Part shown: piece after piece, positions 1,829 to 19,519 of the stretch
Layout: each line of letters opens with the position of its first letter
Position numbering within the stretch: the stretch's first letter is position 1
DNA from: Erysipelotrichaceae bacterium
GTDB lineage: Bacteria > Bacillota_I > Bacilli_A > Erysipelotrichales > Erysipelotrichaceae
Assembly: GCA_012513225.1 (NCBI GenBank)
Contig: JAAZCQ010000037.1
Location: forward strand, 190,699-214,698
Reading direction: 5' to 3'
DNA length: 24,000 nt
Made by a program: the position numbers and the translations under genes
The notes under the pieces: generated by a model
Told to the model about the DNA's origin: nothing
What the model saw: only the letters and a program-made list of their open reading frames with translations
The model's database searches: none

Positions 1829-1871
1829 GAATTTCTTTACATTTATAGGTAAATAAAAGTATATTTTCTGA

Positions 1872-1880
1872 TGATATAAT
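1872..1880 (+). promoter_or_regulatory. extended -10 promoter element (TGATATAAT) for the EIIC/6-P-beta-glucosidase operon
   Basis: TGnTATAAT at 1872-1880, 27 nt upstream of the ATG at 1908. AAGGAG SD lies in between. Confidence 0.45.
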
Positions 1881-1907
1881 TTCACCTATAAAAGGAGTGA
1901 AATTTAT

Positions 1908-4633
<2,726 letters not shown>

Positions 4634-4638
4634 AATTT

Positions 4639-4666
4639 AAACCACGTTGTAATAGACGTGGTTTTT
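4639..4666 (+). terminator. rho-independent terminator after the 6-P-beta-glucosidase gene
   Basis: 8-bp stem AAACCACG (4639-4646) / CGTGGTTT (4657-4664) with 4 GC pairs, 10-nt loop, T-run to 4666. Confidence 0.7.
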
Positions 4667-4787
4667 AATTTAAATATTAAAGTAACTAGATATTTTATAT
4701 TTTCATATATAATTGTTGTATTTCATTTTTTACATTAAAGACAACTGCATGGTGGATAGAAAAAGACTCAAAATTATTTACTCTCCA

Positions 4788-4796
4788 TGATATAAT
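4788..4796 (+). promoter_or_regulatory. extended -10 promoter element (TGATATAAT) for the HAD/YhcH pair
   Basis: TGnTATAAT at 4788-4796, 23 nt upstream of the ATG at 4820. SD GGAGGG at 4808-4813. Confidence 0.45.
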
Positions 4797-4819
4797 ACAA
4801 ACTATACGGAGGGCATAAA

Positions 4820-5482
4820 ATGATTAAAGCAATACTTTTTGATTACGATGGTACATTATCTAACAGAATAGAGTCAGGATATAAAAAATATCAAGCAGAC
4901 TGTAGAGAAATATTTCCAGATTTAGATCCAAATGGTATTGAACTAGAAGCAATAATACAAAGATGTATGACATGGGATGAATATGGAACTATTAATAAAA
5001 GACATGTTTATACACAATTAAAGGAAGCATATAATTTAGACATTGACGTTGAAAAATGGGTAGAAAACTGGTATAACACTTTTCATTTATATCAAGTACT
5101 TCAAAGAGATTGTAAAGAAATACTAAAAAAATTATCTCAACATTATAAATTGGGCTGTGTTACTAATGGCAATTCATACACACAACATATAAAGCTTGAT
5201 TATACAAATTTAAAAGAATGTTTTGATGTAGTATTTGTATCTGGAGATTATGGGATACATAAACCAGATAAAAAATTATTTTTGATGGCTGCAGATGAAT
5301 TAGGCATAAAACCAGAAGAAATTGCATTTGTAGGTGATACATTTGCGACTGATATATTAGGAGCTCATCGTGCTGGTATGCATCCTATTTGGTTTTTTAA
5401 TGATCCTTTAAGATACAGTGATACACAAGTTACAAGAATTTATTCATTTTATGAATTATTAGAAACATTTGGTATTGAATAA
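4820..5482 (+). CDS. HAD-superfamily hydrolase/phosphatase (subfamily IA-like)
   Basis: Motif I DxDxT (FDYDGTL, aa 7-13). C-terminal GDTFATDILGA motif IV. 220 aa. Confidence 0.8.
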   Translation: MIKAILFDYDGTLSNRIESGYKKYQADCREIFPDLDPNGIELEAIIQRCMTWDEYGTINKRHVYTQLKEAYNLDIDVEKWVENWYNTFHLYQVLQRDCKEILKKLSQHYKLGCVTNGNSYTQHIKLDYTNLKECFDVVFVSGDYGIHKPDKKLFLMAADELGIKPEEIAFVGDTFATDILGAHRAGMHPIWFFNDPLRYSDTQVTRIYSFYELLETFGIE

Positions 5483-5925
5483 TGATTTTTGATAATGGGG
5501 AGAATATTGATCGATATTTTGGTATCAATAAGAATATTGATGAGAGTTTAAATTTTATAAAGTCTCATAGATTTGATAATAATTTAAAAGATGGTAAATA
5601 TATAATTATTGAAAATGAAGTATTTGTGAGTGTAATGAGTGTTAATACAAAAGAAAAAGAATCAGGAAAACCTGAAGTTCATTTTAAATATATGGATATA
5701 CAATATGTTATTAATGGTGAAGAGAAGTGTTACATAGGAAAAACAAATAAAAATATAACTTCAAATGATCAAGATATAGATTTTATAGATACTGATATTA
5801 ATTGTGAAATATTAGTTAAGCCTGATGAGTTTTATATGGTTTATCCATATGAACCACATCTTCCAACTTGTAATATTGAATATAATAAACCAATAAGAAA
5901 AATGGTTGTAAAAGTAAAAATTTAA
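5482..5925 (+). CDS. YhcH/YjgK/YiaL (EbgC-like, DUF386) family protein
   Basis: 147 aa. The segments HFKYMDIQYVINGEE and YPYEPHLP resemble the conserved core of the YhcH family. Start overlaps the HAD stop (TAATG at 5480-5484), implying translational coupling. Confidence 0.6.
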   Translation: MIFDNGENIDRYFGINKNIDESLNFIKSHRFDNNLKDGKYIIIENEVFVSVMSVNTKEKESGKPEVHFKYMDIQYVINGEEKCYIGKTNKNITSNDQDIDFIDTDINCEILVKPDEFYMVYPYEPHLPTCNIEYNKPIRKMVVKVKI

Positions 5926-6682: not shown

Positions 6683-6955
6683 TTTATCACCAATAAAATT
6701 ATAACAAAATATAATCAATATTTACATTTTAATTTATTTAAGGTTATTCTTTATATAATATTTTGTAAATAAGTATATATTTAATTTTTGACAAAGGAAT
6801 ATCTCTGATTTATATTTAGTATAGTTCCTTATTGTATTAATAACACAATAATAATTTAATTTTATTTTTAGAATTTATATATACTTTCATTTTTTAATCA
6901 TGTATATTTAATATTTTAATTTTGAAATATTAAAAGGGGAAAGGAGCATAAAAAT

Positions 6956-8914
6956 ATGATTGAACCAATTATAGAGCAAATAATAAATCTTTTACTTAAA
7001 AAAGAAAATCCTGTATCATCTAAGCAAATTGCTTCAGATTTAAATGTATCAAAAAGTACTATAAAGAATAATATGAGTAATGTTAAAGAAGTTGTTAACT
7101 CTGCAAAAATTGAACTTAAAGCTTTACAAGGAACTGGATATTGGCTAGAAGGTACTGAATTACAAAAAAAATTTTTAAAAAAAATAATTCTAAATAATGA
7201 AGATAAGTCTTATTCATATAATTATAGAAGACATTATATTTTAAGTGTTTTAACAGAACCAAAATCAAACTATACAATCCAATTGTTTGCTGATGACTTA
7301 CTAGTAAGTAGGAATATTATAAGTACAGATTTAGTGAGTATTGAAGATTGGCTTAACAATTTTGATATAAAATTAATTAAAACTCCAAATATAGGTGTTA
7401 AGATTGAAGGAAATGAATTTAATATTCGTCAAGCACTTATTTATAGTAATACTGCATTAATGGAGAAAATGGTTATTGATATGGAGTTACCATCTAACTT
7501 AGATATTAGAATATCCAATACATTTTATAATTATTATTCTAAGGTATTTCCAGAAAGTGACATTTATTATTTTCAAAATATTTTACTTGAAGCAGAAAAA
7601 ATAATGGATTATAGATACGAAGATATTTCTTTTATTCAATTATTAGAATATATTACATTAACTTTTCAAAGAGTAAAAAAACATTGTATTATTCAAGGTG
7701 AAAATATTTTAAGTAAATGTAGATTTTTAAATTTCCATCTAGAAGCAGCAAGTAAGTTGTTGAATTATATTATAGATTATTCAGATACTTATGAAACAGA
7801 AGTTAAATCATTGGCTTCTCAATTTTCTTTATATGGAGCCTACGAAGATGCCTCCTATTCATTAATTAAAGATGAATATTATTCATATTTAGCTAGACAG
7901 TTTGTTGATAATCTTCAAGAAATAATAGTGAATAAAAAAATACTTATAAATGAAAACCTTATTGAAGATATAAGTACTTTATTCATTAAAAAAAAGATGC
8001 AAAAAAATTTTCAAGTTATTAATAGTAATTTTTTAAAGTTAGATGTTAAAGAACAGCTTCCAAGTTTATATGGAATTGTACTTGCAAATATATATCCTTT
8101 CGAAAAAATTTTAGGAGTGAAATTTACAGATAATGATATTGCTTATTTTGTTATACTTATAGATAATGCTTTTGATGATACAAGCGATATACTGCAGGTA
8201 TTATTGATTACCACATATGATTATAATACTGCTAAATACCTACAAAATAAAATTAAAAAAAGCATAAGTAATATACAAATATGCGAAGTGATACATCCAG
8301 AAGAATTAGATAAAGTAGATACCTCTAAATATGATGTTGTATTAACAACAGCAATAATAGATGATTTATCTGCTTTAAAAATATCTCGAAGAGTTGATAA
8401 TTATGACTTAGAATTAATATATAGGCTTTGTGAAACAAAAAGAAATAATAAGAAAAAAATTATAGTAAAAGGTGAAACATGGTTTAGCGAAAAATTAATA
8501 ATTAATGATTTATTAGTGAAGAAAAAGGAAGATGTTTTAAAAGAAGGGGTAAATATTCTTGTTAAAAATGGATATGTAACGGATAAGTTCTATGATGTAT
8601 TAGTTTCTCAAGACAGTAGTGTTAATACATCAATTGGTAATGGAGTTGCAATTCCTCATGGATATCTTACGGAAATTATTAAAAGTGGTGTAGCACTAAT
8701 TAAGTTAAAAAACCCTATAGAGTGGACAGAAACTGAAAAAGTGAATTTAATATTTATTATAGCAATTTCATCTAAAAATAAAGAAGAGATTCAAGCATTT
8801 TTTGCTAATCTTTATGAATTATTAAGTGATAAAAGAAATGTTGAAAGAATAAAAAATACAGATAATAAAAAAGAGATATTGACAATTATTCAAGAAAAGA
8901 ATAATATTAGTTGA
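6956..8914 (+). CDS. PRD-domain transcriptional regulator of the MtlR/LicR/ManR type (HTH - PRD region - EIIB-like - EIIA(Fru/Mtl)-like)
   Basis: 652 aa. N-terminal winged-HTH-like segment (VSSKQIASDLNVSKSTIKNNM). The C-terminal ~145 aa carry the PTS EIIA type-2 active-site motif GNGVAIPHGY (His568, codon 8657-8659). Length and domain order match BglG-family activators that sit beside PTS operons. Confidence 0.75.
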   Translation: MIEPIIEQIINLLLKKENPVSSKQIASDLNVSKSTIKNNMSNVKEVVNSAKIELKALQGTGYWLEGTELQKKFLKKIILNNEDKSYSYNYRRHYILSVLTEPKSNYTIQLFADDLLVSRNIISTDLVSIEDWLNNFDIKLIKTPNIGVKIEGNEFNIRQALIYSNTALMEKMVIDMELPSNLDIRISNTFYNYYSKVFPESDIYYFQNILLEAEKIMDYRYEDISFIQLLEYITLTFQRVKKHCIIQGENILSKCRFLNFHLEAASKLLNYIIDYSDTYETEVKSLASQFSLYGAYEDASYSLIKDEYYSYLARQFVDNLQEIIVNKKILINENLIEDISTLFIKKKMQKNFQVINSNFLKLDVKEQLPSLYGIVLANIYPFEKILGVKFTDNDIAYFVILIDNAFDDTSDILQVLLITTYDYNTAKYLQNKIKKSISNIQICEVIHPEELDKVDTSKYDVVLTTAIIDDLSALKISRRVDNYDLELIYRLCETKRNNKKKIIVKGETWFSEKLIINDLLVKKKEDVLKEGVNILVKNGYVTDKFYDVLVSQDSSVNTSIGNGVAIPHGYLTEIIKSGVALIKLKNPIEWTETEKVNLIFIIAISSKNKEEIQAFFANLYELLSDKRNVERIKNTDNKKEILTIIQEKNNIS

Positions 8915-8931
8915 CAAGGAAAGAAAAATTG

Positions 8932-8959
8932 AGAGCAATTATTGATTGCTCTTTTTTTT
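8932..8959 (+). terminator. rho-independent terminator after the regulator gene
   Basis: 8-bp stem AGAGCAAT (8932-8939) / ATTGCTCT (8945-8952), 5-nt loop, T-run 8952-8959. Confidence 0.65.
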
Positions 8960-8986
8960 GACCTATTAATAGTATAAAAATAAAAT
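8958..8986 (+). promoter_or_regulatory. sigma-A-type promoter of the PTS/ketose operon
   Basis: TTGACC (8958-8963), 17-nt spacer, TAAAAT (8981-8986). About 97 nt upstream of the first ATG (9084). Confidence 0.45.
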
Positions 8987-9083
8987 TAATGAAATTTGCA
9001 ATCAACTTCTTTAATAAAATAAACTAAGTATATAGACGTGATGTTGTGCACACATTCAGACTATAAATTGAAAGGAGTTTTAA

Positions 9084-9944
9084 ATGAAAATTAAATTTGG
9101 AGTTGATTCTTTTATTTGGACTGAAGTTTTTTCTGAGAAAGATCTCTGGATAATTAAAAAAGCGGAAGAATTAGGATTTGAAACTATTGATTTAGCTATT
9201 GCTCATCCAGAAAATTTCCCTTTAGAAAAAGTAAAGAATGAGTTAGCAAAAACAAATTTAGAAGTTGTTACGACAACGACATTAAATTCTGAGACAAATC
9301 TAATATCAGTGGATGAAAATATCAGAAAAAATGGAATTAAGACTTTAAAGAATTTAGTAGATATTAATAAAGCATTAAACTCTAAAATTTTAGGTGGAGT
9401 AAATTATGCTGGGTGGGGATGTTTGACGGGAAAGCCAAGAACTGAAGAAGAATGGAAGAACTCAGTTGAATCAATGAGAGAGGTAGCAGAGTACGCTCTT
9501 AAAGTACATCCTGAATTAAATATTTGTGTAGAACCTGTTAATAGATTTGAGACACATTTTATAAATACAGCAGAAGATGGTGTAAAATACTGCAAAGATA
9601 TTGGTACTGGAAATATGAAGGTGCATTTAGATAGCTTCCATATGATACGGGAAGAAACTAGCTTTACAAATGCAGTAAAAACTTGTGGAAAGAATTATTT
9701 GGGATATGTTCATGTTTGTGAAAATAATCGTGGAATCCCAGGAACAGGGTTAGTTCCGTTTAAAGAATTTTTTACAGCACTTGGTTCAATTGGTTATAGT
9801 GGACCTTGCGTTATAGAATCTTTTGATCCTAGTTTTGAAGAATTAAATTCAAATTGCGCAATTTGGAGAAAATTCGCTGATACTGGAGAAGAATTAGCAG
9901 TTAAGGGGCTTGAAAATTTAAAAAAGATAGCAGAAGAAATATAA
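9084..9944 (+). CDS. ketose 3-epimerase-like enzyme (xylose-isomerase-like TIM barrel; D-tagatose/D-psicose 3-epimerase family)
   Basis: Aligns by eye to A. tumefaciens and C. cellulolyticum D-psicose 3-epimerases: ICVEPVNRFE (E150, E156), HLDSFH (D183, H186), YVHVCENNRGIPG (H210, R216), VIESF (E245). These are the same residues at nearly the same numbering as the Mn ligands and catalytic Glu pair of that family. SD AAAGGAG is 7 nt upstream. Confidence 0.75.
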   Translation: MKIKFGVDSFIWTEVFSEKDLWIIKKAEELGFETIDLAIAHPENFPLEKVKNELAKTNLEVVTTTTLNSETNLISVDENIRKNGIKTLKNLVDINKALNSKILGGVNYAGWGCLTGKPRTEEEWKNSVESMREVAEYALKVHPELNICVEPVNRFETHFINTAEDGVKYCKDIGTGNMKVHLDSFHMIREETSFTNAVKTCGKNYLGYVHVCENNRGIPGTGLVPFKEFFTALGSIGYSGPCVIESFDPSFEELNSNCAIWRKFADTGEELAVKGLENLKKIAEEI

Positions 9945-9957
9945 TTGGAGGTTATTT

Positions 9958-10830
9958 ATGCTTGTAAATATGAAAGAAATTTTAGAAAATGCTGAAAAAG
10001 AAGGATATGGAATTGGGTGCATAAATACGCCTAATGTTGAAACATTACGTGCAGTAATAGGTGCTGCTGAAGAACTAAATGTTCCTGTTATAATTGACCA
10101 TGCACAAGTACATGATTCTTTGATACCTATTGAAGAAATTGGGCCTAAAATGGTTGAATATGCAAAAAAATCAACTGTTCCTGTATGTGTCCATTTAGAT
10201 CATGGGTCTGACTATAATTTTGTTATGAGAGCAATTAGATGTGGTTTCACATCAATTATGTATGATTTAAGTGAGTCACCATTTGAAGAAAACATGGAAA
10301 AACTAAAAGAGTTTACTAAAATTGCGCATGATCTAGATATTACTGTTGAGGCAGAATTAGGAATAATGACTTCTACAGAGGATGATACTCACGGAGGAGA
10401 AGTTGGATGGACTCATGAATCTATAAAAAAGACATTCACGGATCCAGAGCAAGCTGCAACTTTTGCTAGAGAAACAGGAGTTGATGCTTTAGCGGTTTGT
10501 TTCGGAACAGCACATGGGATTTATGCAGAACCTCCTTTATTAGATATCGATAGAGTTAAAGCAATTAGGAAAGCTATGCCTGAGTCAACTAGGGTTGTAA
10601 TGCATGGTGGTAGTGGTGTAGATGAAGATCAAATCCAAGCAGCAATCTCTGCAGGATGTTCAAAAATAAATTATTATTCATATATGGCAAAGGCATGTAG
10701 TAAGCATATTAATAATTATTTGGCTGAAAGAGAAGGAAATGCTTATTGGCATGAGGTTCAAGAAGAAGCATATACCTTTATGAAAGAATATATTAAAGGT
10801 GTATTAAATACATTTAAGAATGGAAAATAA
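9958..10830 (+). CDS. class II (Zn-dependent) ketose-bisphosphate aldolase, FbaA/GatY/KbaY family
   Basis: VHLDHG (aa 78-83), GTAHG and MHGGSG motifs correspond to the three Zn-ligand His and the catalytic Asp of class II aldolases. 290 aa. SD GGAGG upstream. Confidence 0.88.
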   Translation: MLVNMKEILENAEKEGYGIGCINTPNVETLRAVIGAAEELNVPVIIDHAQVHDSLIPIEEIGPKMVEYAKKSTVPVCVHLDHGSDYNFVMRAIRCGFTSIMYDLSESPFEENMEKLKEFTKIAHDLDITVEAELGIMTSTEDDTHGGEVGWTHESIKKTFTDPEQAATFARETGVDALAVCFGTAHGIYAEPPLLDIDRVKAIRKAMPESTRVVMHGGSGVDEDQIQAAISAGCSKINYYSYMAKACSKHINNYLAEREGNAYWHEVQEEAYTFMKEYIKGVLNTFKNGK

Positions 10831-11311
10831 CATTTTGGAAAAAGTAAATTTAGCAAACGTTCTTGTAAAAGAAGCCGTAATAATTGATTGTAATCCTTTT
10901 GAATCAAAAGATGAAATGTTTAAATTTATGGTAAGTAAATTTGAAGAAGCTAAAATTGTTTCAGATTCGAAGAGCTACTTAAAATCTTTATATGAAAGAG
11001 AAGAATTAGGCTCTACTTATATGGGCAATTATATTGGACTTCCTCACGGAAGAAGTGAAGGTGTCGTACGTCCAGGAATTGGCTTTTGTAAATGCAAAGT
11101 ACCATTTGAGTATGAATCATTTGGAGAAAAAGGAAAAGTAAAGTATGTATTTATGCTTGCAATTGCTTCTTATCAAAATAGTGAAGAATATATGAGGGTG
11201 CTAGCCACTTTAGCAGGGTATTTAGTTCATGATGAATTCATTTCTGGTTTAGATAAATGTAGAAGCTATGAGGAATTAATAGAATTAATTAAAAATTTTG
11301 ATAATAAATAG
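10820..11311 (+). CDS. PTS EIIA component, fructose/mannitol type (EIIA-2)
   Basis: 163 aa with the active-site motif YIGLPHGRS. ATG overlaps the aldolase stop by 11 nt. Confidence 0.85.
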   Translation: MENNILEKVNLANVLVKEAVIIDCNPFESKDEMFKFMVSKFEEAKIVSDSKSYLKSLYEREELGSTYMGNYIGLPHGRSEGVVRPGIGFCKCKVPFEYESFGEKGKVKYVFMLAIASYQNSEEYMRVLATLAGYLVHDEFISGLDKCRSYEELIELIKNFDNK

Positions 11312-11325
11312 AAGAAGGAGAAAGT

Positions 11326-11637
11326 ATGAAAATAGTAGCTATAACTTCTTGTGCTACAGGAATAGCGCATACTTATATGGCAGCAGAAGCAATAAAAAAA
11401 ATATGTAAAAAAAAGGGGTTTGAATGTAAAGTTGAAATGCAAGGAGCTTTGGGAATTGAAAACATGTTAAAACCAAATGAAATTAAAGAAGCGGACTTAA
11501 TTATATTTGCTAATGATGTTGGAATTACCAAAGAAGAAAGATTTAAAGAATATAAAGATAAAATAATAAAAGTTACTCCACATTCAGTAATTAAAGATCC
11601 AAGTATAATTTTTAATAAAAAAGAGGAGAATAAATAA
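11326..11637 (+). CDS. PTS EIIB component, fructose family
   Basis: 103 aa. The N-terminal MKIVAITSCATGIAHTYMAAEAI contains the phospho-Cys signature of Fru-type EIIB. SD GGAGAA upstream. Confidence 0.88.
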   Translation: MKIVAITSCATGIAHTYMAAEAIKKICKKKGFECKVEMQGALGIENMLKPNEIKEADLIIFANDVGITKEERFKEYKDKIIKVTPHSVIKDPSIIFNKKEENK

Positions 11638-12704
11638 TGAAAGATATAAAGAATCAGATACAAGAAGCACTTTTAACGGGCGTTTCTTATATGTTACCTT
11701 TTGTAATTTCTGGTGGAATATTAATAGCGTTAGGGTTTTTATTAGGAGGATATAATATTCCAAATGATGTTGCACAAGGAGCTAATTTTGCATCAACAAT
11801 ATTTTGGCTAGGGAAAGTAGCATTTGGATTAATGGTACCTGTATTAGGGGCATATGTTTCTTATTCAATTGCTGACAAACCTGGTATTGCTCCAGGAATG
11901 GTAGGCGGTTTTATGGCTATGGATCCTTGGGGATTGGATATGGCATCTGGATTTTTAGGCGGCTTAATAGCAGGAATCGTTGCTGGTTACATTGTAAATT
12001 TATTGAAAAAAATACCAGTACCAAGTTCTTTAAGGTCACTTTTACCTACATTAATAATACCTGTACTTGGTGTAACATCTGTAGGACTATTGATGCATTA
12101 TGTAATTGGGGGACCAATTGCAGCCGTAACAGGAGCACTAACTAACTTTTTAAATAATATGGGAACAGGGAATTTAGTAATTCTAGGCATTATACAAGGA
12201 TGTATGCTTGCATTTGATATGGGAGGACCATTTAACAAAGTAGCATATGCATTTGCTTTAGCAGCAATGGATACAGGTAATTTTATGCCAATGGCAGCTA
12301 ATTTTGTTGGAAGTATGGCTCCACCTTTGGGTATTGCAATTGCAATTTTATTAGATAGAAACAAAGAAAAATTTACAGATACTGATCGTAATTCATTACC
12401 AGGACTATTCGCAGGTGCGGCTGCAATGATAACTGAATTTGCTATTCCATTTGCTGCAGCTCATCCATTACAAGTTATTCCTTCACTAATGGTTGGATCA
12501 GCAGTTGGGTGTGCATTATCATATATATTTGGGCTTACAATGCAAGCTCCGCATGGAGGTATATTTGTATTATTTGCTTTAAATAACGCTTTATTATTTT
12601 TAGTCGCATTACTTGTGGGTGGATTTGTTACTGGGGCTATATTATTCTTTATTAAAAAACCTGTTTCTGAAACAGAACAATCACTTGAAGAAATAGTGGA
12701 TTAA
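11637..12704 (+). CDS. PTS EIIC component, fructose family
   Basis: 355-aa polytopic protein with the Fru-type EIIC motifs DMGGPFNKVAYAF and ITEFAIPFAA. Start overlaps the EIIB stop (TAATG). Confidence 0.88.
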   Translation: MKDIKNQIQEALLTGVSYMLPFVISGGILIALGFLLGGYNIPNDVAQGANFASTIFWLGKVAFGLMVPVLGAYVSYSIADKPGIAPGMVGGFMAMDPWGLDMASGFLGGLIAGIVAGYIVNLLKKIPVPSSLRSLLPTLIIPVLGVTSVGLLMHYVIGGPIAAVTGALTNFLNNMGTGNLVILGIIQGCMLAFDMGGPFNKVAYAFALAAMDTGNFMPMAANFVGSMAPPLGIAIAILLDRNKEKFTDTDRNSLPGLFAGAAAMITEFAIPFAAAHPLQVIPSLMVGSAVGCALSYIFGLTMQAPHGGIFVLFALNNALLFLVALLVGGFVTGAILFFIKKPVSETEQSLEEIVD

Positions 12705-12715
12705 GAGGAAATAAA

Positions 12716-13630
12716 ATGGCTAAATTAATTGATATTCAGGGAAAATTTCCTTTTGAACCAGATAATAAAAAACCAATGCTTATTAGAAAGAATGATTATT
12801 CTACAGCATTATATCCACCTAACAACGCATTTACTTCTGATAATACATTTACAATTATAACAACGGATACATTTATGCTAGGTATTTATGAATTAGGTCC
12901 TGGAGGTGTATTTCTTCCATTAGATATACATCCTGGGGATGAATCTTACTATATTCTTAATGGTCCAGTAGTTCAAAGGAGTGGAAATGGTCAATTTGCA
13001 TACCTAGAATCTGGAGAAGGACTTTATATGCCTGAAGGTGCTTGGCACTGTGCACATAATTTTTCATCAAATAAAGCTAGAATATTGTATTTTATAACTC
13101 CAGAAGCTTGGAATGAAGAAATTCCACCTGCTGTAATACCTTCTGACGAGGAAACAAAATTTTATAAAGGTCCAAATAATCATAAATTACCTAATATGAA
13201 AAGCAAAATAAAAAATATAGCAAGACAAGGATGTACTGATGATATTGGAAGCTGGCCAACTGATGCAAAAGAAGCTAGAGAATCAGGGGCAGTATATGCA
13301 GTAAGAGAGCATGAAAAACTTAATAATATTCACGGGACAAAGCATCCAATGCTAATTAGATTTATAACAAGTAATGATTATGGTCATTTTGGTGAATTTA
13401 TTTTACCTGCAGGTGGATATGGTCCAAGATGTTCTGATCCTGATACACATGCAGGAGATGCTGCACTATATTGTATAGAAGGACCTGTTACTGTCAATTT
13501 GGTAGATTTAGAGGAAAGCTTTGTTCTAGATCCAGAAGACACATTTTTCTTACCAGCAAATACAAAATATCAGTTAGTTAATTTTGAGAATAAACCAATA
13601 AAGGTTGTATTTGCTATAACTAATTTATAA
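12716..13630 (+). CDS. bicupin protein of unknown function (candidate sugar or sugar-phosphate isomerase)
   Basis: Two cupin modules. The N-module fits both classic cupin motifs with exact spacing: G-x5-D-x-H-x3-E-x6-G (GVFLPLDIHPGDESYYILNG) and G-x5-P-x-G-x2-H-x3-N (GEGLYMPEGAWHCAHN). The C-module keeps the spacing but has Ala for the Glu and Tyr for the motif-2 His. Confidence 0.7.
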   Translation: MAKLIDIQGKFPFEPDNKKPMLIRKNDYSTALYPPNNAFTSDNTFTIITTDTFMLGIYELGPGGVFLPLDIHPGDESYYILNGPVVQRSGNGQFAYLESGEGLYMPEGAWHCAHNFSSNKARILYFITPEAWNEEIPPAVIPSDEETKFYKGPNNHKLPNMKSKIKNIARQGCTDDIGSWPTDAKEARESGAVYAVREHEKLNNIHGTKHPMLIRFITSNDYGHFGEFILPAGGYGPRCSDPDTHAGDAALYCIEGPVTVNLVDLEESFVLDPEDTFFLPANTKYQLVNFENKPIKVVFAITNL

Positions 13631-13636
13631 GTAAGC

Positions 13637-13664
13637 ATAGAAACCTAATTCATTAGGTTTCTAT
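13637..13664 (+). other. intra-operon RNA hairpin (perfect 13-nt inverted repeat)
   Basis: ATAGAAACCTAAT (13637-13649), TC, ATTAGGTTTCTAT (13652-13664). Sits in the only sizeable gap of the operon (57 nt). Followed by only a short T tract (TTTAAT). Confidence 0.6.
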
Positions 13665-13687
13665 TTAATAGATAGGAGGTTTTATAA

Positions 13688-14143
13688 TTGAGAATAGCAA
13701 TTGGCTGTGATGAAGCGGCATATGATTTAAAAGAAGCGATAAAACAATACTTAAATACAAAAGATTGTACTTTAGTAGATGTTGGTACATATGATAAAAA
13801 TCCTGTATTATATCCAGATATTGCAGAAAAAGTATGTAATGAAATATTAAATAATAACTGTGAAAGAGGTATCTTATTTTGTGGGACAGGGATAGGTATG
13901 TCTATAACTGCGAATAAAATTCCAGGAATTAGAGCTGCAGTTGTACATGATATATTTTCATTAGAAAGAATGATAAAAAGTAATGATTGTCAAATTATAT
14001 GTATGGGCTCTAGAATAATTGCTCAACAAACTGCAGAATTTTTACTTGATAGATGGCTAAAAATTAAATTCATAGATAGTCCTAGCACTGAAAAAATAAA
14101 TAGAATAAAACAAATTGAAAATAAATATAATAATGTGAGGTGA
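13688..14143 (+). CDS. rpiB: RpiB/LacA/LacB-family sugar-phosphate isomerase (divergent; LacB-like C-terminus)
   Basis: MRIAIGCDEAA... and GILFCGTGIGMSITANKIPGIRAA carry the family's Asp8, Cys65 and Thr67. TTG start at 13688 sits 8 nt after AGGAGG and gives the canonical MxIAIGxD N-terminus. The symbol reflects the family only; the substrate is uncertain (see findings). Confidence 0.8.
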   Translation: MRIAIGCDEAAYDLKEAIKQYLNTKDCTLVDVGTYDKNPVLYPDIAEKVCNEILNNNCERGILFCGTGIGMSITANKIPGIRAAVVHDIFSLERMIKSNDCQIICMGSRIIAQQTAEFLLDRWLKIKFIDSPSTEKINRIKQIENKYNNVR

Positions 14144-14146
14144 AAA

Positions 14147-15142
14147 ATGCAAAGAATAATTAATAATCCAAATTTAGTTGTCGAAGATATGTTAAAAGGA
14201 TATGAAAAAAGTCATTCAGATATAATACATTCAGATGAAAACAATCCGAGAGTAATAATTTCAAATAGTGTTAAAGAAAAAAAGAAAGTTGGGATTATAA
14301 CTGGAGGAGGAAGTGGACATGAGCCAGCATTTTTAGGATATTGTGGAAGAAATATGGTAGATGCAGTAGCTGTAGGAGAAATTTTCTCTTCACCAACTGC
14401 AAAGTCATTTTATGATTGTATAAGAGCAGTAGACCAAGGTATGGGTGTAGCATGCTTATATGGTAATTATGCTGGAGATAATATGAATGTTAAAATGGCT
14501 ATAGAATTAGCAGAGGATGATGAAATCGAAGTTAAGACTGTAGTTGCAAATGATGATGTAGCAAGCGCTCCAAAAAATGAAATTGATAAAAGAAGAGGAG
14601 TGGCTGGAGAAATATTTATGTGGAAAGTTGGTGGTGCTAAATCTAATATGGGGGCAACTTTAGATGAAGTAATAAAAACAACTCAAAAAGCAATAAATAA
14701 TACTAGGAGTATAGGAGTTGGGCTTAGTCCATGTACTATTCCAGCAAATGGTAAACCAAATTTTATGATTGAACCAGGAACTATGGAATTTGGTATTGGT
14801 CATCATGGAGAACCTGGAATTTCCGTAAAAAAATTATCAACAGCTAAAGATATAGCTTCTAATATGGTAGAGATTATTTATAATGATTCACTATTTGAAA
14901 ATGGTGATGAAGTATCAGTTTTAATATCAGGGTTAGGGTCAACTCCTCTTATGGAGCAATATATTTTATTTGATGAAGTTGCCAAAATTTTAGAAGAAAA
15001 GAATATTACTATTTATAAAGCGTATATTGGAAATTATTTCACATCCTTAGAAATGAATGGTCTTACACTAACAATTATGAAGCTTGATGAGGAGCTAAAA
15101 GAATGTTTAGATATGCCTGTAGACACAGTAGGATTTAAATAG
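14147..15142 (+). CDS. dhaK: dihydroxyacetone kinase, substrate-binding subunit DhaK (Dak1 domain)
   Basis: GGGSGHEP motif and FGIGHHGEPG (the His that forms the hemiaminal with the substrate in E. coli DhaK). 331 aa. Confidence 0.9.
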   Translation: MQRIINNPNLVVEDMLKGYEKSHSDIIHSDENNPRVIISNSVKEKKKVGIITGGGSGHEPAFLGYCGRNMVDAVAVGEIFSSPTAKSFYDCIRAVDQGMGVACLYGNYAGDNMNVKMAIELAEDDEIEVKTVVANDDVASAPKNEIDKRRGVAGEIFMWKVGGAKSNMGATLDEVIKTTQKAINNTRSIGVGLSPCTIPANGKPNFMIEPGTMEFGIGHHGEPGISVKKLSTAKDIASNMVEIIYNDSLFENGDEVSVLISGLGSTPLMEQYILFDEVAKILEEKNITIYKAYIGNYFTSLEMNGLTLTIMKLDEELKECLDMPVDTVGFK

Positions 15143-15153
15143 AGGTGAACAAT

Positions 15154-15798
15154 ATGAAAGATTATATATATGATAATAATAATAGTTGGATTGTTTTAGA
15201 CATTATAGAACAAATTCATCTAAACTCTTCTTACTTAAGTGAAATAGATGGAGCTACTGGTGATGGCGATCACGGTGTAAATATGGATAAAGGCTTTATG
15301 CTTGCTAAGGAGAAAATACCTTTAGATTCAAATTTTACAGAAGCTTTAAAAATATTAGGTAGAACATTGGTGATGGATATTGGCGGAAGTATGGGACCAA
15401 TTTATGGTACTTTTTTCTCAAAATTAAGTAGAACTTTAAAAAGTAAAGAAGAAATTGATAAGTATTTATTTTTAGATGCTTTAAAAAATGCAAATCAAGG
15501 CTTATTAGACTTAGCTGGAGCAAAAGTTGGGGATAAAACACTAATTGACACACTATATCCCGCCATTTTATCTTATGAGAATGCGATAAATAATAATTTG
15601 ACATTTTATCAATGCTTATATGAAATGAAACAAGGTGCCAAAAGTGGAATGGAAAGTACAAAAGATATGGTAGCTAAAATAGGAAGAGCTTCTAGGTTGG
15701 GAGAAAGAAGTAAAGGATACCTTGATGCTGGAGCAACTTCATGTTTCATAATCCTAGATACTATGGCTAATTCAATACAAAAAGAGCTAGCTAAGTAA
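15154..15798 (+). CDS. dhaL: dihydroxyacetone kinase, nucleotide-binding subunit DhaL (Dak2 domain)
   Basis: DGATGDGDHGVNM motif (Mg/ADP-binding Asp cluster of DhaL). ATG at 15154 is 6 nt after GAGGTG. The listed ORF begins at GTG 15145, which lies inside that SD. Confidence 0.88.
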   Translation: MKDYIYDNNNSWIVLDIIEQIHLNSSYLSEIDGATGDGDHGVNMDKGFMLAKEKIPLDSNFTEALKILGRTLVMDIGGSMGPIYGTFFSKLSRTLKSKEEIDKYLFLDALKNANQGLLDLAGAKVGDKTLIDTLYPAILSYENAINNNLTFYQCLYEMKQGAKSGMESTKDMVAKIGRASRLGERSKGYLDAGATSCFIILDTMANSIQKELAK

Positions 15799-16580
15799 TG
15801 AATGCACACTCAAAAAAATATTTTTTCTTTGATATAGATGGGACTTTAACTGACAATGCAACCGGAGAAATCATCCCATCAGCAAAAAAAGCTATAGATT
15901 TGCTTTTAAAGCGTGGACACTTTGTTTCTTTAGCAACTGGAAGAGCTCATTATAAAGCAAGAAAATTTATGAATGAAATAGGGCTTCATAACATGGTATG
16001 TGGAGGAGGTGGCTCTATAGTAATTAATGATAAACTTATATATAATATTCCTTTAGAATTTAATAAAGCACAAAAAATTATAGATGAAGCTGAAAAATTA
16101 GGTATTGGTATTTTGTTGATGTTGGATGATTCAACTAAGCTATATTCTAAAAATGATAATTTTAGAATACAAGTTGGTAATCGAAAAGAGCCAACAGAAT
16201 ATATTATTGATAGTAATTTAGATTATAAACATTTAATAGAAATATTTAAAATTTATTTATCTATATCGAAAGAAGATGAACATTTATTAACTACAAAAAC
16301 AATTCTTGGAAATTTAAGATTTGTTCCAGAGTACTTAATGTTTCAGTATGACGAAAAAGATAAAGGAATAAAGGAAATGATAAAGTTAATTAATGGTTCT
16401 CTTACGGATGTTGTTGTCTTTGGTGATGATTACAATGATCTGGTAATGTTTGATTCGATTTGGACAAACATTGCAATGGGAAATGCGTGCAAAGAATTAA
16501 AGGACAAAGCTACTTTTGTCACCAAATCAAATATTGAGGATGGAATATTATATGCATGTGAAAAAATGGATTGGATTTAA
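15798..16580 (+). CDS. Cof-type HAD-IIB sugar phosphatase
   Basis: Motif I FFDIDGTLT, motif IV GDDYNDLVMF, and a cap-domain-sized insert between them. Start overlaps the dhaL stop (TAATG). Confidence 0.85.
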   Translation: MNAHSKKYFFFDIDGTLTDNATGEIIPSAKKAIDLLLKRGHFVSLATGRAHYKARKFMNEIGLHNMVCGGGGSIVINDKLIYNIPLEFNKAQKIIDEAEKLGIGILLMLDDSTKLYSKNDNFRIQVGNRKEPTEYIIDSNLDYKHLIEIFKIYLSISKEDEHLLTTKTILGNLRFVPEYLMFQYDEKDKGIKEMIKLINGSLTDVVVFGDDYNDLVMFDSIWTNIAMGNACKELKDKATFVTKSNIEDGILYACEKMDWI

Positions 16581-16663
16581 TATTATCCAATTAATAAAAA
16601 GCGAAAAAATAATCTTAAATGGATATAATAAAACCTTTGTATATACTAATAGATAAACAATAT

Positions 16664-16700
16664 AAAAGAAATGAACATCATAGTTTCATTTCTTTTATTT
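16664..16700 (+). terminator. rho-independent terminator closing the PTS/ketose operon
   Basis: 12-bp perfect stem AAAAGAAATGAA (16664-16675) / TTCATTTCTTTT (16685-16696), 9-nt loop, T-rich tail. Confidence 0.65.
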
Positions 16701-16798
16701 AGATGATATAAAAAATGATAAATTATGATTCTTATGATTGTATAAAGAAGTATATAATTAATGATATGTAATAAAAATTATAAGAAAGTGAGTTTAAT

Positions 16799-17536
16799 AT
16801 GACTAAGATTTTAGAAGTTTGTTGTGGTAGTTATGAAGATGTTCTTGCTGCTTATAGAGGTGGTGCAAAAAGAGTTGAATTAAATAGTGCTTTATTTATG
16901 GGAGGTCTTACACCATCTTTATCCACATTAAAATTGTCAAAAGAAAATACTGATATAAAAATTATTTCAATGGTAAGGCCAAGAGGAGCAGGTTTTTGCT
17001 ATAGTGAAAAAGAATTTGAAGTTATTAAAATGGATACAATATTATTATTAGAAAATGGCAGTGATGGAATTGCATTTGGATTTTTAACAGATGATAATGA
17101 AATAGATGTTAAAAGAACAAAAGTTTTAGTTGACATTATACATGGATATAATAAAGAAGCAGTTTTTCATCGTGCTTTTGATTGTGTGGAAAATCCGTTT
17201 TCATCTATTGAAAAGTTAATTGATTTAAAAATAGACAGAGTACTAACTAGTGGTTTGTATGAAAAAGCTTTTGAAGGCAAAGAAATCTTAAAGCAATTAA
17301 ATCAAAAATATGGTGATAAAATTGAGATACTTGCTGGGAGTGGTATAAATGCATCTAATGCGATTAGTTTGATGAATTATACTGGATTGTCTCAAATACA
17401 CTCTTCTTGTAAAAGTTGGAATATGGATCCTACTACAACGAATGAACAAGTAAGTTTTGAATATAATGGATTAAAATATGATGTGGTAGATGAAAAATTA
17501 GTAAAAGAATTAGAAGATTTATTAAAAGAAAAGTAA
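16799..17536 (+). CDS. cutC: CutC-family protein (copper homeostasis protein CutC homologue)
   Basis: The N-terminus ILEVCCGSYEDVLAAYRGGAKRVELNSALFMGGLTPS matches the CutC signature (E. coli: LEICCYS...GADRVELC...GGLTPS). 245 aa TIM-barrel-sized protein. Confidence 0.8.
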   Translation: MTKILEVCCGSYEDVLAAYRGGAKRVELNSALFMGGLTPSLSTLKLSKENTDIKIISMVRPRGAGFCYSEKEFEVIKMDTILLLENGSDGIAFGFLTDDNEIDVKRTKVLVDIIHGYNKEAVFHRAFDCVENPFSSIEKLIDLKIDRVLTSGLYEKAFEGKEILKQLNQKYGDKIEILAGSGINASNAISLMNYTGLSQIHSSCKSWNMDPTTTNEQVSFEYNGLKYDVVDEKLVKELEDLLKEK

Positions 17537-17566
17537 GATTTTAAAAATATGAAAATTGTAAATGAA

Positions 17567-17594
17567 AAGCCCGTTAAATTAATATAACGGGCTT
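17567..17594. terminator. terminator hairpin shared by convergent cutC and the permease gene
   Basis: 10-bp perfect stem AAGCCCGTTA (17567-17576) / TAACGGGCTT (17585-17594) with 5 GC pairs. The U-tract is good on the minus strand (TTTTCATTT) and weaker on the plus strand. Confidence 0.7.
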
Positions 17595-17613
17595 AAATAT
17601 TTACTATTTTATA

Positions 17614-18909
17614 TTAAGCGTATATAAACCAAATTAGTACATAACCTATAAATACAGCAACTAATGTAAATGGAATTGAAATTTTCATAAATTCACTATT
17701 TTTTACAGAATATCCTTCTTTTCTAAGTAATCCTAAAGCAGTAATATTAGCTGATGCACCAATTGGAGTTAAATTTCCACCTAATGTAGCACCTGATAAT
17801 AAGCCAAACATTAATAAGGTTTGATCGACTCCTAGTGATAATGCAATACCAGAAACAACAGGTAACATAGTTAATACATATGGTATGTTATCAATAAAAG
17901 CACTTAAAAGAACAGAGGCCCAAACAATAATTGTATAAAGCATAAATATATTGCCTTCACCTGCATTTGCAATTAAAGAAGCTAACCAATCTATAACACC
18001 AGCTTCATTAATTCCTGCAATAACAATAAATAAACCAAGAAGTAACCCTAAAGTAAAAAAGTCAATTTCTTTTAAAGTATTTTTAAAAATATTAATATCT
18101 TTTTGTACAATTATTTCATATATAATTCCTATAATCATTAATGCAACACATATTAAGCCATTAATATTATCCTTAATCCAAACTGGAAAAACACCATTAG
18201 GAACAAATGATGCAATGATTAGTAAAACTACTAATCCTACTAGTAATACTGTGGGGACATAGTCTTTTACAACAGTTGAATCATTAAATTCAAATTTTTC
18301 ATTATCATTTCTAAATATATAAAGAAGAACTAATGTTGCACCAATACTAGAAATTTGAACAACCCAAAATAGTCCCATTTTTCCATTAAAGACAAAGAAA
18401 TCTAAGAAATTCATATTGTTATAGCCACCAAGTAAAATAGATGTAGTATCACCTACTAAGGTAGCCGCACCTTGTAAATTTGAAGATATTGCGATAGCAA
18501 TAATTGATTTTACAGGTGATATATTAAGTTTTTTACATAAGGTCATTGCTACTGGAGCTACCATTAATACTGTAGCTACATTATCTACAAATGCACTAAT
18601 AAAGCTAGCAAATATAGCTAAAGCAACAGTCATCCATTTAATATTCGGCATTTTGTCAATAATAAATTCAGCCATCTTTTCTGGCATTTTTGATTCTATA
18701 AATAATGAAACAATACCCATTGTACCAGCTATCATCATAAGTACATTAAAATCAATTGAACCAAGTATCTTGTTAATGGGTAAAAATCCCATTAATATAA
18801 ATATTAATCCGCTGCCTAATGCTATATACGGCCTGTAATTTTGAAATATAATAAGTCCTATATAAGTTATAGCGAATAATAGTAAAGCGATAATTGTGCT
18901 AGATTCCAT
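17614..18909 (-). CDS. ArsB/NhaD-superfamily (CitMHS/YbiR-like) anion permease
   Basis: 431-aa protein with about 10-12 TM segments. The segment SAFVDNVATVLMVAPVA resembles the conserved (F/L)DNDATV motif of ArsB/NhaD permeases, repeated in degenerate form in the C-terminal half (SAFIDNIPYVLTMLPV). Confidence 0.65.
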   Translation of the reverse strand: MESSTIIALLLFAITYIGLIIFQNYRPYIALGSGLIFILMGFLPINKILGSIDFNVLMMIAGTMGIVSLFIESKMPEKMAEFIIDKMPNIKWMTVALAIFASFISAFVDNVATVLMVAPVAMTLCKKLNISPVKSIIAIAISSNLQGAATLVGDTTSILLGGYNNMNFLDFFVFNGKMGLFWVVQISSIGATLVLLYIFRNDNEKFEFNDSTVVKDYVPTVLLVGLVVLLIIASFVPNGVFPVWIKDNINGLICVALMIIGIIYEIIVQKDINIFKNTLKEIDFFTLGLLLGLFIVIAGINEAGVIDWLASLIANAGEGNIFMLYTIIVWASVLLSAFIDNIPYVLTMLPVVSGIALSLGVDQTLLMFGLLSGATLGGNLTPIGASANITALGLLRKEGYSVKNSEFMKISIPFTLVAVFIGYVLIWFIYA

Positions 18910-19017: not shown

Positions 19018-19395
19018 TTAATTAGTAGCATCTTTCTCTTTTGCTTTACATTTTTCACAAACATAATCAATTGTAATATTATAAGATATTAATGAATCAA
19101 TTTCTTTTTTTAATATATTATCTATTTCACTTATATAGATATCATTTATACTTGAGCATCTTGAACAAATAATATGAGAATGTTTTGAAAGATTCCAATC
19201 AAATTTATCAGGAGAATTAGGTAATGATACTCTTTTTATTTGATTTTCTTCTACTAGTTTATTTAGATTACGATATACAGTTCCTAAAGCAATTGATGGA
19301 ATCTCTTGTTTTGCGTACATAAAAATTTCATCTGCAGTTAAATGCATTTTCTTGCTTTGTATAATCTTTAATATAACTTGTTTTTGTTTACTCAT
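19018..19395 (-). CDS. perR: Fur-family metalloregulator, PerR-like peroxide-stress repressor
   Basis: H18, D66, H72, H74, D85 and C77/C80 have exactly the spacing of B. subtilis PerR H37, D85, H91, H93, D104 and C96/C99 (constant offset of 19). A second CxxC (CEKC) follows. DNA-recognition helix ALGTVYRNL. Lies next to the catalase gene. Confidence 0.7.
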   Translation of the reverse strand: MSKQKQVILKIIQSKKMHLTADEIFMYAKQEIPSIALGTVYRNLNKLVEENQIKRVSLPNSPDKFDWNLSKHSHIICSRCSSINDIYISEIDNILKKEIDSLISYNITIDYVCEKCKAKEKDATN

Positions 19396-19519
19396 TATTA
19401 TTCTTCCTTAATAGGTTATCTAATTCTTAATTTAACCTATGAATATAAGTATGATTCTAGCAAATTTATATTTTATAACAAGTATAAAGCTTAATATTAT
19501 AAAGTATTATGATTTATAT

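Follow-up and report, generated by a model that had tools for sequence, protein, structure and literature searches.

A gene cluster containing a regulator gene and ten further co-directional genes was identified in a 24-kb stretch of DNA (the window; ~28% G+C) from an Erysipelotrichaceae bacterium (contig JAAZCQ010000037.1, positions 190,699 to 214,698). The ten genes encode, in this order, a ketose 3-epimerase-like enzyme, a divergent class II aldolase, the EIIA, EIIB and EIIC components of a fructose (Fru)-family phosphotransferase system (PTS), a bicupin, an RpiB-type isomerase, the kinase subunits DhaK and DhaL (DhaKL), and a Cof-type phosphatase (Table 1). We propose that the cluster is a catabolic unit for a ketose, by deduction perhaps one of seven carbons (C7), that would be cleaved first and have its free half salvaged afterwards; a probability of about 0.35 is given to this reading. 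One part of it, with a monophosphate as the aldolase substrate and DhaKL serving the product left without phosphate, stands somewhat better than even. The observations reported here are the gene content of the cluster, its conservation, the altered distal pocket of the aldolase, the intact free-ketose site of the epimerase, and the exchange of the epimerase for a triosephosphate isomerase (TIM) paralog in variant loci. Each enzyme family and each type of step is known already; the combination, the putatively monophosphate-type PF01116 subfamily and the bicupin are not.

The eleven open reading frames (ORFs) lie at 6956-16580, tightly packed and exactly where the first-pass annotation of this DNA had placed them, and each of its family assignments was confirmed by Pfam and NCBIfam. 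By their coordinates, neighbouring genes overlap by 11, 1 and 1 nt or are separated by gaps of 2-14 nt; the larger gaps are 169 nt after the regulator gene and 57 nt at 13631-13687, before the RpiB gene. The same annotation had described a set of co-directional genes for PTS uptake and catabolism whose enzymes are not the canonical ones and in which DhaK/DhaL is the only kinase. This description is supported: Pfam and NCBIfam scans found no gene for a PfkB or PFK kinase in the whole 24 kb, and family scans bear out DhaK/DhaL as the sole kinase of the operon. EIIC and EIIB score above the cut-offs of TIGR01427 (326.4 vs 157.55 bits) and TIGR00829 (95.6 vs 76.85), whereas EIIA is below that of TIGR00848 (90.8 vs 103.5) and matches Pfam PTS_EIIA_2 with 114 bits.

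The aldolase passes only the broad cbbA ketose-bisphosphate aldolase subfamily model TIGR00167 (231.8 vs 215.6 bits). It scores 204-232 bits against the equivalog models of fructose-bisphosphate aldolase (FBA), GatY and KbaY and does not reach their cut-offs (343-443); the annotation of its subfamily is the generic ketose-bisphosphate aldolase only. The closest solved structures are 8q57/8q58, class II aldolases for sulfofructose-1-phosphate (1e-43 to 1e-46). These solved relatives, of the SqiA type, cleave a ketose 1-monophosphate, sulfofructose-1-phosphate; the 1-phosphate is bound by Ser211, Thr233 and the backbone amides of Gly181, Gly210 and Asp232, the C3-OH by Asp82 and Asn230, and the C5-OH by Asp232 (PMC10665668). 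Fructose 1,6-bisphosphate (FBP) aldolases bind the 6-phosphate through Ser49, Arg259 and the partner subunit's Arg280' (PMC10665668). The roles of these residues were transferred to the window enzyme via alignments anchored on T. aquaticus Ser49, Arg259 of 'DTDLR' and S. aureus Arg280 of 'DPR'.

The window aldolase retains the three Zn-binding His residues, the LDHG Asp, the KIN Asn, the EDD loop and the HGGSG Ser, and LDHG, GT(M/A)HG, HG(G/A/S)SG, KIN and the EDD loop are conserved in its orthologs. The distal-phosphate ligands are replaced: Ser49 by Ala (DHAQ), Arg259 by Ala (YSYMA) and Arg280' by His (WHE). Asp232 is replaced by Tyr and Thr233, conservatively, by Ser, this position being Ser or Thr in the orthologs. 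The three distal-phosphate positions are Ala, Ala/Ser/Gly and His in 58/58 orthologs, and a conserved Tyr/His-rich pocket with the subfamily motifs IIDHA(Q/E)VH(D/N), K(I/V)N(Y/F)Y(S/T)Y and (Y/W)HE takes the place of the lost ligands. In sequence terms this is the signature of a DHAP (dihydroxyacetone phosphate)-forming enzyme whose predicted substrate carries a 1-phosphate and lacks a distal anion.

The first-pass annotation had offered three models as inseparable: (a) phosphorylation of a hexose phosphate by DhaKL before cleavage, (b) cleavage of a ketose-1-phosphate with DhaKL as triokinase, and (c) a tetrulose kinase/isomerase module. They are not equally open, as the loss of the distal-phosphate ligands disfavours model (a). 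In that model, RpiB, the bicupin and the epimerase would act on hexose-6-phosphates, DhaKL would phosphorylate C1 and the aldolase would split the 1,6-bisphosphate. The match to TIGR00167 agrees with it, as do the two kinases found in variants of the cluster with an ABC transporter (described below) and the activity of RpiB-type enzymes on hexose-6-phosphates, with allose and galactose-6-phosphate as precedents. It is nevertheless highly improbable, because every ortholog has other residues in place of the three ligands of the distal phosphate while keeping the catalytic and 1-phosphate residues. The epimerase, moreover, resembles enzymes of free ketoses, minimal ABC variants have one kinase only, and we know of no DAK- or FGGY-family kinase that acts on a sugar already carrying a phosphate. 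Models (b) and (c) look less like alternatives than like two halves of one pathway, and elements of both are retained in the reading proposed here.

Several known systems resemble parts of the cluster. SqiA of the sulfo-EMP2 pathway (PDB 8q57-8q5a) is likewise a PF01116 enzyme that converts a ketose 1-monophosphate to DHAP and an aldehyde without phosphate, and Arg280' is missing from it as well; SqiA keeps N-V-D-T-E-L-R, whereas the window enzyme has N-Y-Y-S-Y-M-A and the DHAxVHD stretch. A sulfoquinovose reading, suggested by these closest solved aldolases, was rejected, since the motif differs and the window, in contrast to sulfo-EMP2, encodes no sulfoquinovose isomerase, sulfofructose kinase or sulfolactaldehyde enzyme. 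An FSA-like ketose-6-phosphate aldolase that frees dihydroxyacetone (DHA), with DhaKL as a true DHA kinase, was shelved because the 1-phosphate loop and the Ser/Thr ligands are retained. With the FruK, LacABCD and B. licheniformis tagatose-1-phosphate kinase/GatY routes the operon shares PTS entry, an RpiB/LacAB-family isomerase and a ketose-phosphate aldolase. It differs from them in that the window is devoid of PfkB/PFK and the aldolase has no distal phosphate ligands and is not a class I LacD; neither a LacC PfkB kinase nor a class I LacD aldolase was found in the window scans. Cleavage of a ketose-1-phosphate with a separate fate of the aldehyde occurs in FucIKA, RhaABD, mammalian aldolase B with the DAK-family triokinase, and IolB-IolC-IolJ. 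Precedents exist for a DAK enzyme as an aldehyde-salvage kinase and for a cupin isomerase, IolB, paired with a PF01116 aldolase, IolJ. Unlike these routes, the operon phosphorylates by PTS and has a salvage arm four enzymes long, and its bicupin is unrelated in sequence to IolB/KduI.

The epimerase scores 186.5 bits against the D-psicose 3-epimerase (DPE) equivalog model, below the cut-off of 300, and matches structures of DPE, D-tagatose 3-epimerase and L-ribulose 3-epimerase at ~1e-38 to 1e-41. Its motifs VEPVNRFE, HLDSFH, HVCENNR and VIESF align with those of 3vni, and in this alignment the two proteins are identical at all seven E, E, D, H, H, R, E motif positions. We take these positions to be E150, E156, D183, H186, H209, R215 and E244 of 3vni, comprising catalytic residues, metal ligands and O1-O3 contacts; the matched DPE residues presumably grip the free C1-OH in the DPE structures. 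Because the catalytic and O1-O3 motifs are all kept, the enzyme fits a small free ketose with a free C1-OH, and not a 1-phosphate, as its probable substrate.

DhaK contains the canonical His/Asp/His motifs of the family (GSGHEP, YAGD and GIGHHGEPG). It falls just below the equivalog cut-off of TIGR02363 (361 vs 406), whereas DhaL is above that of TIGR02365 (166.9 vs 138.3). Two starts are conceivable for DhaL: GTG at 15145, 2 nt past the DhaK stop, and ATG at 15154, which the public gene call on the identical contig uses. The isomerase is above the cut-off of the RpiB subfamily model (163.8 vs 135) and below those of the rpiB (129.9 vs 138.65) and DerI (142 vs 240) equivalogs.

The families of a tetrulose module, namely a DAK-family kinase, a TIM-like or AP_endonuc_2 enzyme and an RpiB-family isomerase, are co-localised in the cluster. 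The same combination occurs in the tetrulose pathways of M. smegmatis (LerK/DerK-LerI-DerI) and Brucella (EryC-EryH(TpiA2)-EryI(RpiB)), which end at erythrose-4-phosphate, and the epimerase and the TIM-like enzyme are interchangeable in relatives of the operon as well. EryC is a tetrulose-phosphate 3-epimerase and LerK an L-erythrulose 1-kinase. The Brucella L-erythrulose-1-phosphate isomerase (256 aa) has triosephosphate isomerases as its closest matches, and the D-erythrulose-4-phosphate isomerase has 151 aa; we take the latter (DerI/EryI) to be an RpiB-family enzyme and LerK/DerK to belong to the DAK family. The operon differs from these pathways in four respects. It has no polyol dehydrogenase or erythritol kinase by family scans, entry is by a Fru-family PTS, aldolase and bicupin, the epimerase is nearer to free-ketose 3-epimerases than to any phosphosugar epimerase model, and the RpiB enzyme is below the DerI equivalog cut-off.

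Related loci were compared by tblastn of the window proteins and clustering of all neighbouring ORFs. One genome per species was scanned, which gave 80 loci, and the counts below refer to the 65 of them with a bicupin at least 60% identical. The genes linked to the bicupin encode the aldolase (59 loci), EIIC (50), a DAK-family kinase (48), RpiB (39) and the epimerase (36), and the invariant core is the aldolase-bicupin pair. The gene set is co-localised in shuffled order in ~45 of the 65 loci, all from distinct species, and this clustering is far beyond chance. Because gene order varies between lineages, the association appears to be selected and not inherited as a block. The set is conserved in many Bacillota and Actinomycetota. 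Erysipelotrichaceae have the operons most similar to that of the window, and the carriers include gut, insect-gut, food-fermentation and digester bacteria. The operon is thus not confined to one genome; dozens of gut and fermentation bacteria have it, including the very common Anaerostipes hadrus, whose version is listed in >35,000 assembly blocks and has the order regulator, aldolase, IIA, IIB, IIC, bicupin, HAD_2, Cof, RpiB, epimerase, DhaK, DhaL. A homologous regulator precedes the cluster in 44 loci. A HAD_2 phosphatase is present in 22 loci, and Cof or HAD_2 is found in-cluster in ~30. Operon-specific HPr and EI copies, identified from size and sequence only, are recurrent, and a Gfo/Idh/MocA oxidoreductase is present in some loci. 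In Longicatena caecimuris a split transketolase lies directly 3' of the Cof gene, a linkage seen in one locus only. A mannitol operon, CTP synthase and metal ATPase beside the Anaerostipes loci were judged to be unrelated neighbours.

The bicupin, left unexplained by the first-pass annotation, travels with the aldolase and is the most conserved protein of the cluster, with 70-87% identity across bacterial families (Erysipelotrichaceae, Lachnospiraceae, Oceanobacillus, Enterococcus hirae, Tetragenococcus, Propionispora, Pectinatus and Coriobacteriia). Its N-terminal domain contains an invariant metal-type motif, D-x-H-x3-E...H (D70/H72/E76/H111), and in its C-terminal domain H245/D248/Q286 and Arg238 are invariant. 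An AlphaFold2 model was obtained with a pLDDT of 90, and no close solved relative was found among solved structures. We propose that the bicupin is a metal-dependent isomerase.

Several variants of the cluster are informative. Nine Lachnospiraceae-type loci are without the epimerase and have a TIM paralog (PF00121) instead. Eight of the nine also have a second type of DAK, ~42% identical and usually fused; in the ninth, L045, no DAK is linked to the TIM paralog. The window-type DhaK occurs with the epimerase in 34 of the 65 loci and without it in three, two of which are truncated, and the epimerase and the TIM paralog never occur together (0/65). RpiB is common in the window-type DhaK group, and three TIM-type loci (L005, L014 and L041) also have it. 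In Propionibacterium, RpiB-like and TIM-like matches lie ~0.5 kb apart, upstream of aldolase-EIIABC-bicupin. In PTS-less variants the aldolase and bicupin are kept, and a ribose-type ABC transporter and FGGY kinases, with a PfkB kinase in one locus, take the place of both the PTS and DAK. One such locus has the order FGGY-aldolase-bicupin-FGGY (XylB-like)-RpiB, with kinases on both sides of the cleavage enzymes. The ABC and PTS versions have bicupins of 74% identity, which indicates that the bicupin acts after phosphorylation or after cleavage. In Oceanobacillus sojae (L035, 9200-9982) a class I DhnA-type aldolase (ADH-synthase/FbaB/LsrF-like) adjoins the bicupin in place of the class II aldolase, a non-orthologous replacement that preserves the aldolase-bicupin pairing.

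In the proposed pathway, the Fru-family EIIABC would import the sugar and phosphorylate it at C1 to a ketose-1-phosphate; Fru-family PTS enzymes phosphorylate C1 of fructose and tagatose. The divergent aldolase would cleave the ketose-1-phosphate to DHAP and an unphosphorylated aldose, which the bicupin would convert to a ketose. The DPE-like enzyme would then epimerise the free ketose at C3, DhaKL would phosphorylate it, and the RpiB-type enzyme would convert the ketose phosphate to an aldose phosphate. In the variant loci, a TIM-like isomerase acting after a DAK of different regiospecificity would take the place of the epimerase. The Cof phosphatase would serve as a sugar-phosphate overflow valve, and the regulator, with its HTH/Mga and EIIA domains, as a PTS-controlled activator of an operon that is presumably substrate-inducible. 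Besides the aldolase and epimerase residues, we count in favour of this pathway the exchange of the epimerase for the TIM paralog, the kinases on both sides of the cleavage enzymes in a PTS-less variant, the C4-type chemistry around distant bicupins (described below), the transketolase of Longicatena caecimuris and the aldolase replacement in Oceanobacillus.

The chain length of the salvaged half was taken to be C4, as this is the only length with precedent for all four salvage enzymes. DAK enzymes phosphorylate an alpha-CH2OH or a position two carbons from the carbonyl (D-glyceraldehyde, D-erythrulose), and a DAK kinase followed by an RpiB-type isomerase is chemically sensible for a tetrulose only. 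Salvage would accordingly run from tetrose via erythrulose and erythrulose-4-phosphate to erythrose-4-phosphate, and a tetrose product would make the imported sugar a heptulose. That an epimerase or a LerI-like step is required points to L-erythrulose as the shared intermediate and so to a tetrose of L configuration, although this step of the argument is speculative. Plant sedoheptulose, mannoheptulose and L-galacto-heptulose from L-glycero-D-manno-heptose are candidates for the C7 sugar.

A simpler explanation takes model (b) alone. A ketohexose-1-phosphate (from L-sorbose, D-psicose or D-tagatose) would be cleaved to DHAP and D- or L-glyceraldehyde, the bicupin would convert L-glyceraldehyde to dihydroxyacetone, DhaKL would be a DHA kinase/triokinase, and the epimerase and RpiB would act on side substrates. 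The aldolase without a distal phosphate site suits this route, and so does DhaK, whose DHA-kinase motifs are canonical and whose closest matches are genuine DHA kinases. The TIM paralog beside a fused DAK in eight loci would be expected in a pathway that gives two DHAP, and minimal variants without RpiB or epimerase exist. The hexulose explanation, however, leaves RpiB (39/65 loci) and the epimerase (36/65) without a role despite their conservation in the operon, gives no reason for the mutual replacement of epimerase and TIM paralog, and requires a cupin-type glyceraldehyde/DHA isomerase, of which we know none. It is regarded as possible, though on the unlikely side.

The position of the bicupin in the pathway could also be different. 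It might act upstream and epimerise or isomerise the phosphorylated sugar that the PTS delivers to the aldolase, with salvage left to the epimerase or TIM paralog, DhaKL and RpiB; this scheme overlaps the other readings. It would agree with the constant company of the bicupin, which always accompanies the aldolase or EIIC, with its invariant basic residues, with the kinase of phosphorylated acid-sugar pathways that adjoins its distant homologues, and with the first gene of the ABC variants, which is their own and faintly, non-significantly similar to phosphomannose isomerase. The scheme is rather improbable, since no enzyme would be left for the conversion of the free aldose to the ketose needed by DhaKL and the epimerase. 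Sequence and fold searches, moreover, detected no similarity of the bicupin to cupin-type sugar-phosphate isomerases.

The first gene of the ABC variants encodes a ~406-aa protein (L050, L054/L088; L051 and L053 by representative sequences) that has no Pfam or NCBIfam match, and its likeness to type I mannose-6-phosphate isomerase is non-significant (E = 0.2-2). It may be the upstream isomerase of the ABC variant. More distant bicupins (~41% identity) are found in Ruminiclostridium, Actinomycetota and, in part, one Acidobacteriota locus, in clusters with SDR, DUF1537 kinase (best match D-threonate kinase), PdxA-family, class II aldolase-like and cyclase genes. In these clusters (L076 5613-10894, L077 88-5261, L083 8-4380 and, partially, L082) the bicupin is at the cluster end and adjoins an ABC transporter and a mutarotase. 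They look like acid-sugar chemistry of the C4 type, judging from gene families, and apparently represent an uncharacterised pathway.

A C4 or branched C5 substrate (erythrulose, tetrose or apiose-like) was considered as well. The aldolase could cleave erythrulose-1-phosphate to DHAP and formaldehyde (EC 4.1.2.2), or it could connect erythrose-4-phosphate and sedoheptulose bisphosphate, in a step that a HAD phosphatase would complete. A tetrulose-type module is present, phosphatases are frequent in the cluster, and the Tyr-filled distal pocket suits a very small aldehyde. The only real hint is in one ABC-variant locus of a Lachnospiraceae metagenome-assembled genome (L088), where the formaldehyde-fixing RuMP genes for HxlA (3-hexulose-6-phosphate synthase) and HxlB (6-phospho-3-hexuloisomerase), both above the NCBIfam cut-offs, lie beside aldolase-bicupin. 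At 9776-18594 of this locus, aldolase-bicupin is followed by a XylB-type kinase, RpiB, HxlA, Rpe and a second XylB, and, past a LysR gene, by a further FGGY kinase, HxlB and AraD. According to a report cited in PMC10733421, Propionibacterium pentosaceum cleaves erythrulose-1-phosphate, and aldolase-PTS-bicupin is present in Propionibacterium relatives. Both forms of this explanation are quite improbable. A module that forms erythrose-4-phosphate and a lyase that releases formaldehyde would be redundant in one operon, no formaldehyde-handling genes were found in the window or the other 60-odd loci, and an aldolase forming sedoheptulose bisphosphate would need the missing distal phosphate site. 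Apiose routes were also tried and gave no chemically consistent scheme.

Several points weigh against the cleave-first reading. Its substrate is a deduction, as are the substrates of all enzymes and the reaction of the bicupin. The epimerase is needed only for an L-configured tetrose, and heptuloses of L configuration are uncommon. Not every true FBP aldolase has Arg259, as S. aureus FBA has Gln there, and the bulky Tyr in the distal pocket could equally fit a much smaller aldehyde (C1-C3). The model of the bicupin matches generic bicupin folds only, at no more than 18% identity, and the protein has the invariant basic residues R238, K18, R188 and K201; such Arg and Lys residues could mean an anionic, phosphorylated substrate and hence action upstream of the aldolase. 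DhaK is closest to the PTS-dependent L. lactis enzyme 3ct4 (6e-78), with the ATP-dependent C. freundii enzyme further away (9e-42), yet there is no linked DhaM: this EIIA-Man-like donor was not found in the window and was not seen in the annotated homologous loci, and we can only infer the phosphoryl donor of DhaKL. All nine TIM-type loci are Lachnospiraceae-type (Clostridia) by record titles, and their relatedness reduces the swap to few independent events. The pair of TIM and fused DAK could be explained as DHA to DHAP to glyceraldehyde 3-phosphate, and minimal variants (Propionibacterium, Dorea/Mordavella, Lientehia) are without a linked DAK or RpiB.

The wider claim, that the aldolase-bicupin pair defines an undescribed seven-carbon ketose catabolic pathway widespread in gut Bacillota including Anaerostipes hadrus, is doubtful at present. 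The same doubt applies to the roles that the enzymes would have in it, with the bicupin as the first dedicated tetrose/tetrulose isomerase, DhaKL as an erythrulose kinase feeding erythrose-4-phosphate and the aldolase as monophosphate-specific. If true, functions would be assigned to an unannotated bicupin family and a distinct aldolase subfamily, DhaK/DhaL would have a role beyond dihydroxyacetone, and a dietary or microbial sugar harvested by a major butyrate producer would be revealed. Monophosphate-specific DHAP aldolases and tetrose isomerases would also become available for rare-sugar synthesis and synthetic C1 pathways. In agreement with the first-pass annotation, full-text literature on the operon and its candidate substrates contained no homologous operon that had been experimentally assigned. 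No assignment of the bicupin or the aldolase subfamily was found there either, in a search whose coverage is incomplete and which amounts to absence of evidence only, and the full-text literature searched on Anaerostipes sugar use, heptulose/erythrulose PTS routes and EC 4.1.2.2 gave none.

Table 1. Genes and putative transcription signals of the cluster (window coordinates)
Feature	Position	Strand	Basis
Promoter-like site TTGACA-17-TATATT, upstream of regulator gene	6788..6816	+	Consensus match 11/12
Regulator: HTH_11, Mga-HTH, weak PRD, C-terminal EIIA(Mtl/Fru)	6956..8914	+	Pfam
Intrinsic terminator 3' of regulator gene	8931..8953	+	Scan: 10-bp stem, then T run
Sigma-70-like promoter TTGACC-17-TAAAAT of ten-gene unit	8958..8986	+	Consensus match 10/12
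Ketose 3-epimerase-like TIM-barrel enzyme (AP_endonuc_2)	9084..9944	+	Pfam, NCBIfam, structure matches
Divergent class II (Zn) DHAP-type aldolase (PF01116)	9958..10830	+	Pfam, NCBIfam, structure matches
PTS EIIA, fructose/mannitol type	10820..11311	+	Pfam, NCBIfam
PTS EIIB, fructose type	11326..11637	+	NCBIfam
PTS EIIC, fructose family	11637..12704	+	NCBIfam
Bicupin	12716..13630	+	Two Cupin_2 stretches (Pfam)
12-bp hairpin in intergenic gap	13637..13664	+	-13.6 kcal/mol, z = -2.8
RpiB/LacAB-family sugar-phosphate aldose-ketose isomerase	13688..14143	+	Pfam, NCBIfam
DhaK (Dak1) substrate-binding kinase subunit	14147..15142	+	Pfam, NCBIfam
DhaL (Dak2) nucleotide-binding kinase subunit	15145..15798	+	Pfam, NCBIfam; GTG start
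Cof-type HAD-IIB sugar-phosphate phosphatase	15798..16580	+	TIGR00099 128.6, just below cut-off 137
A+T-rich hairpin with U-rich 3' side, probable terminator of unit	16662..16698	+	-12.4 kcal/mol, z = -4.2

The operon had been called PRD-regulated. The HTH_11 (55 bits), Mga-HTH (45) and C-terminal PTS_EIIA_2 (111) domains of the regulator are solid by Pfam, whereas its PRD is sub-threshold (21.2 bits, cut-off 23). Against solved structures the EIIA domain alone matches, and the A. hadrus homologue has no PRD match on record.

The operon promoter and the terminator after the regulator gene, both postulated earlier, were found by scan. Promoter-like matches as a class are not enriched in the window (82 vs 77 in shuffles); the terminator folds with -12.4 kcal/mol (z = -4.5). 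The postulated 3' terminator was not called by the consensus scan because its stem is A+T-rich, but it folds stably and has a U-rich tail. The ten genes are probably co-transcribed. The intergenic hairpin before the RpiB gene has a perfect 12-bp stem without a proper U-tract and is not a canonical terminator. It divides the unit into an epimerase-aldolase-PTS-bicupin half and an RpiB-DhaKL-Cof half, and might serve to stabilise or process the mRNA or act as a partial stop separating sub-modules. At 8879-8929, two TTGACAA copies 34 nt apart are each followed by an A-rich CAAG(A/G)AAAGAA motif. They span the end of the regulator coding sequence and the first part of the spacer, with the terminator and the operon promoter following closely downstream. 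These repeats may represent a regulator-binding site. A search for repeats at the operon promoter gave only a weak direct repeat, a search of the window for catabolite-responsive (cre) sites was at chance level (24 vs 23 expected), and an Rfam scan of the window found no family.

In the homologous operon of Erysipelotrichaceae bacterium MTC7 (L013, 4932-6131), a 399-aa ORF lies between the regulator and epimerase genes; by eye, its YADD-containing sequence is reverse-transcriptase/maturase-like, of the group II intron type. The flanks of the operon in the window encode an esterase, CutC, a CitMHS transporter, Fur, catalase, an Fe-dependent alcohol dehydrogenase, an IS110 transposase fragment and an unrelated beta-glucoside-type PTS/GH1 operon. 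The latter is a separate upstream operon at 979-5925 that encodes an RpiR-type regulator, PTS EIIC, a GH1 6-phospho-beta-glucosidase, a HAD_2 phosphatase and DUF386 (YhcH/YjgK/YiaL). The Fur-family regulator gene is beside that of a haem catalase at 19018-21037, in a genome of 28% G+C whose relatives are gut anaerobes. The IS110-family transposase fragment is at the window edge (23386-24000).

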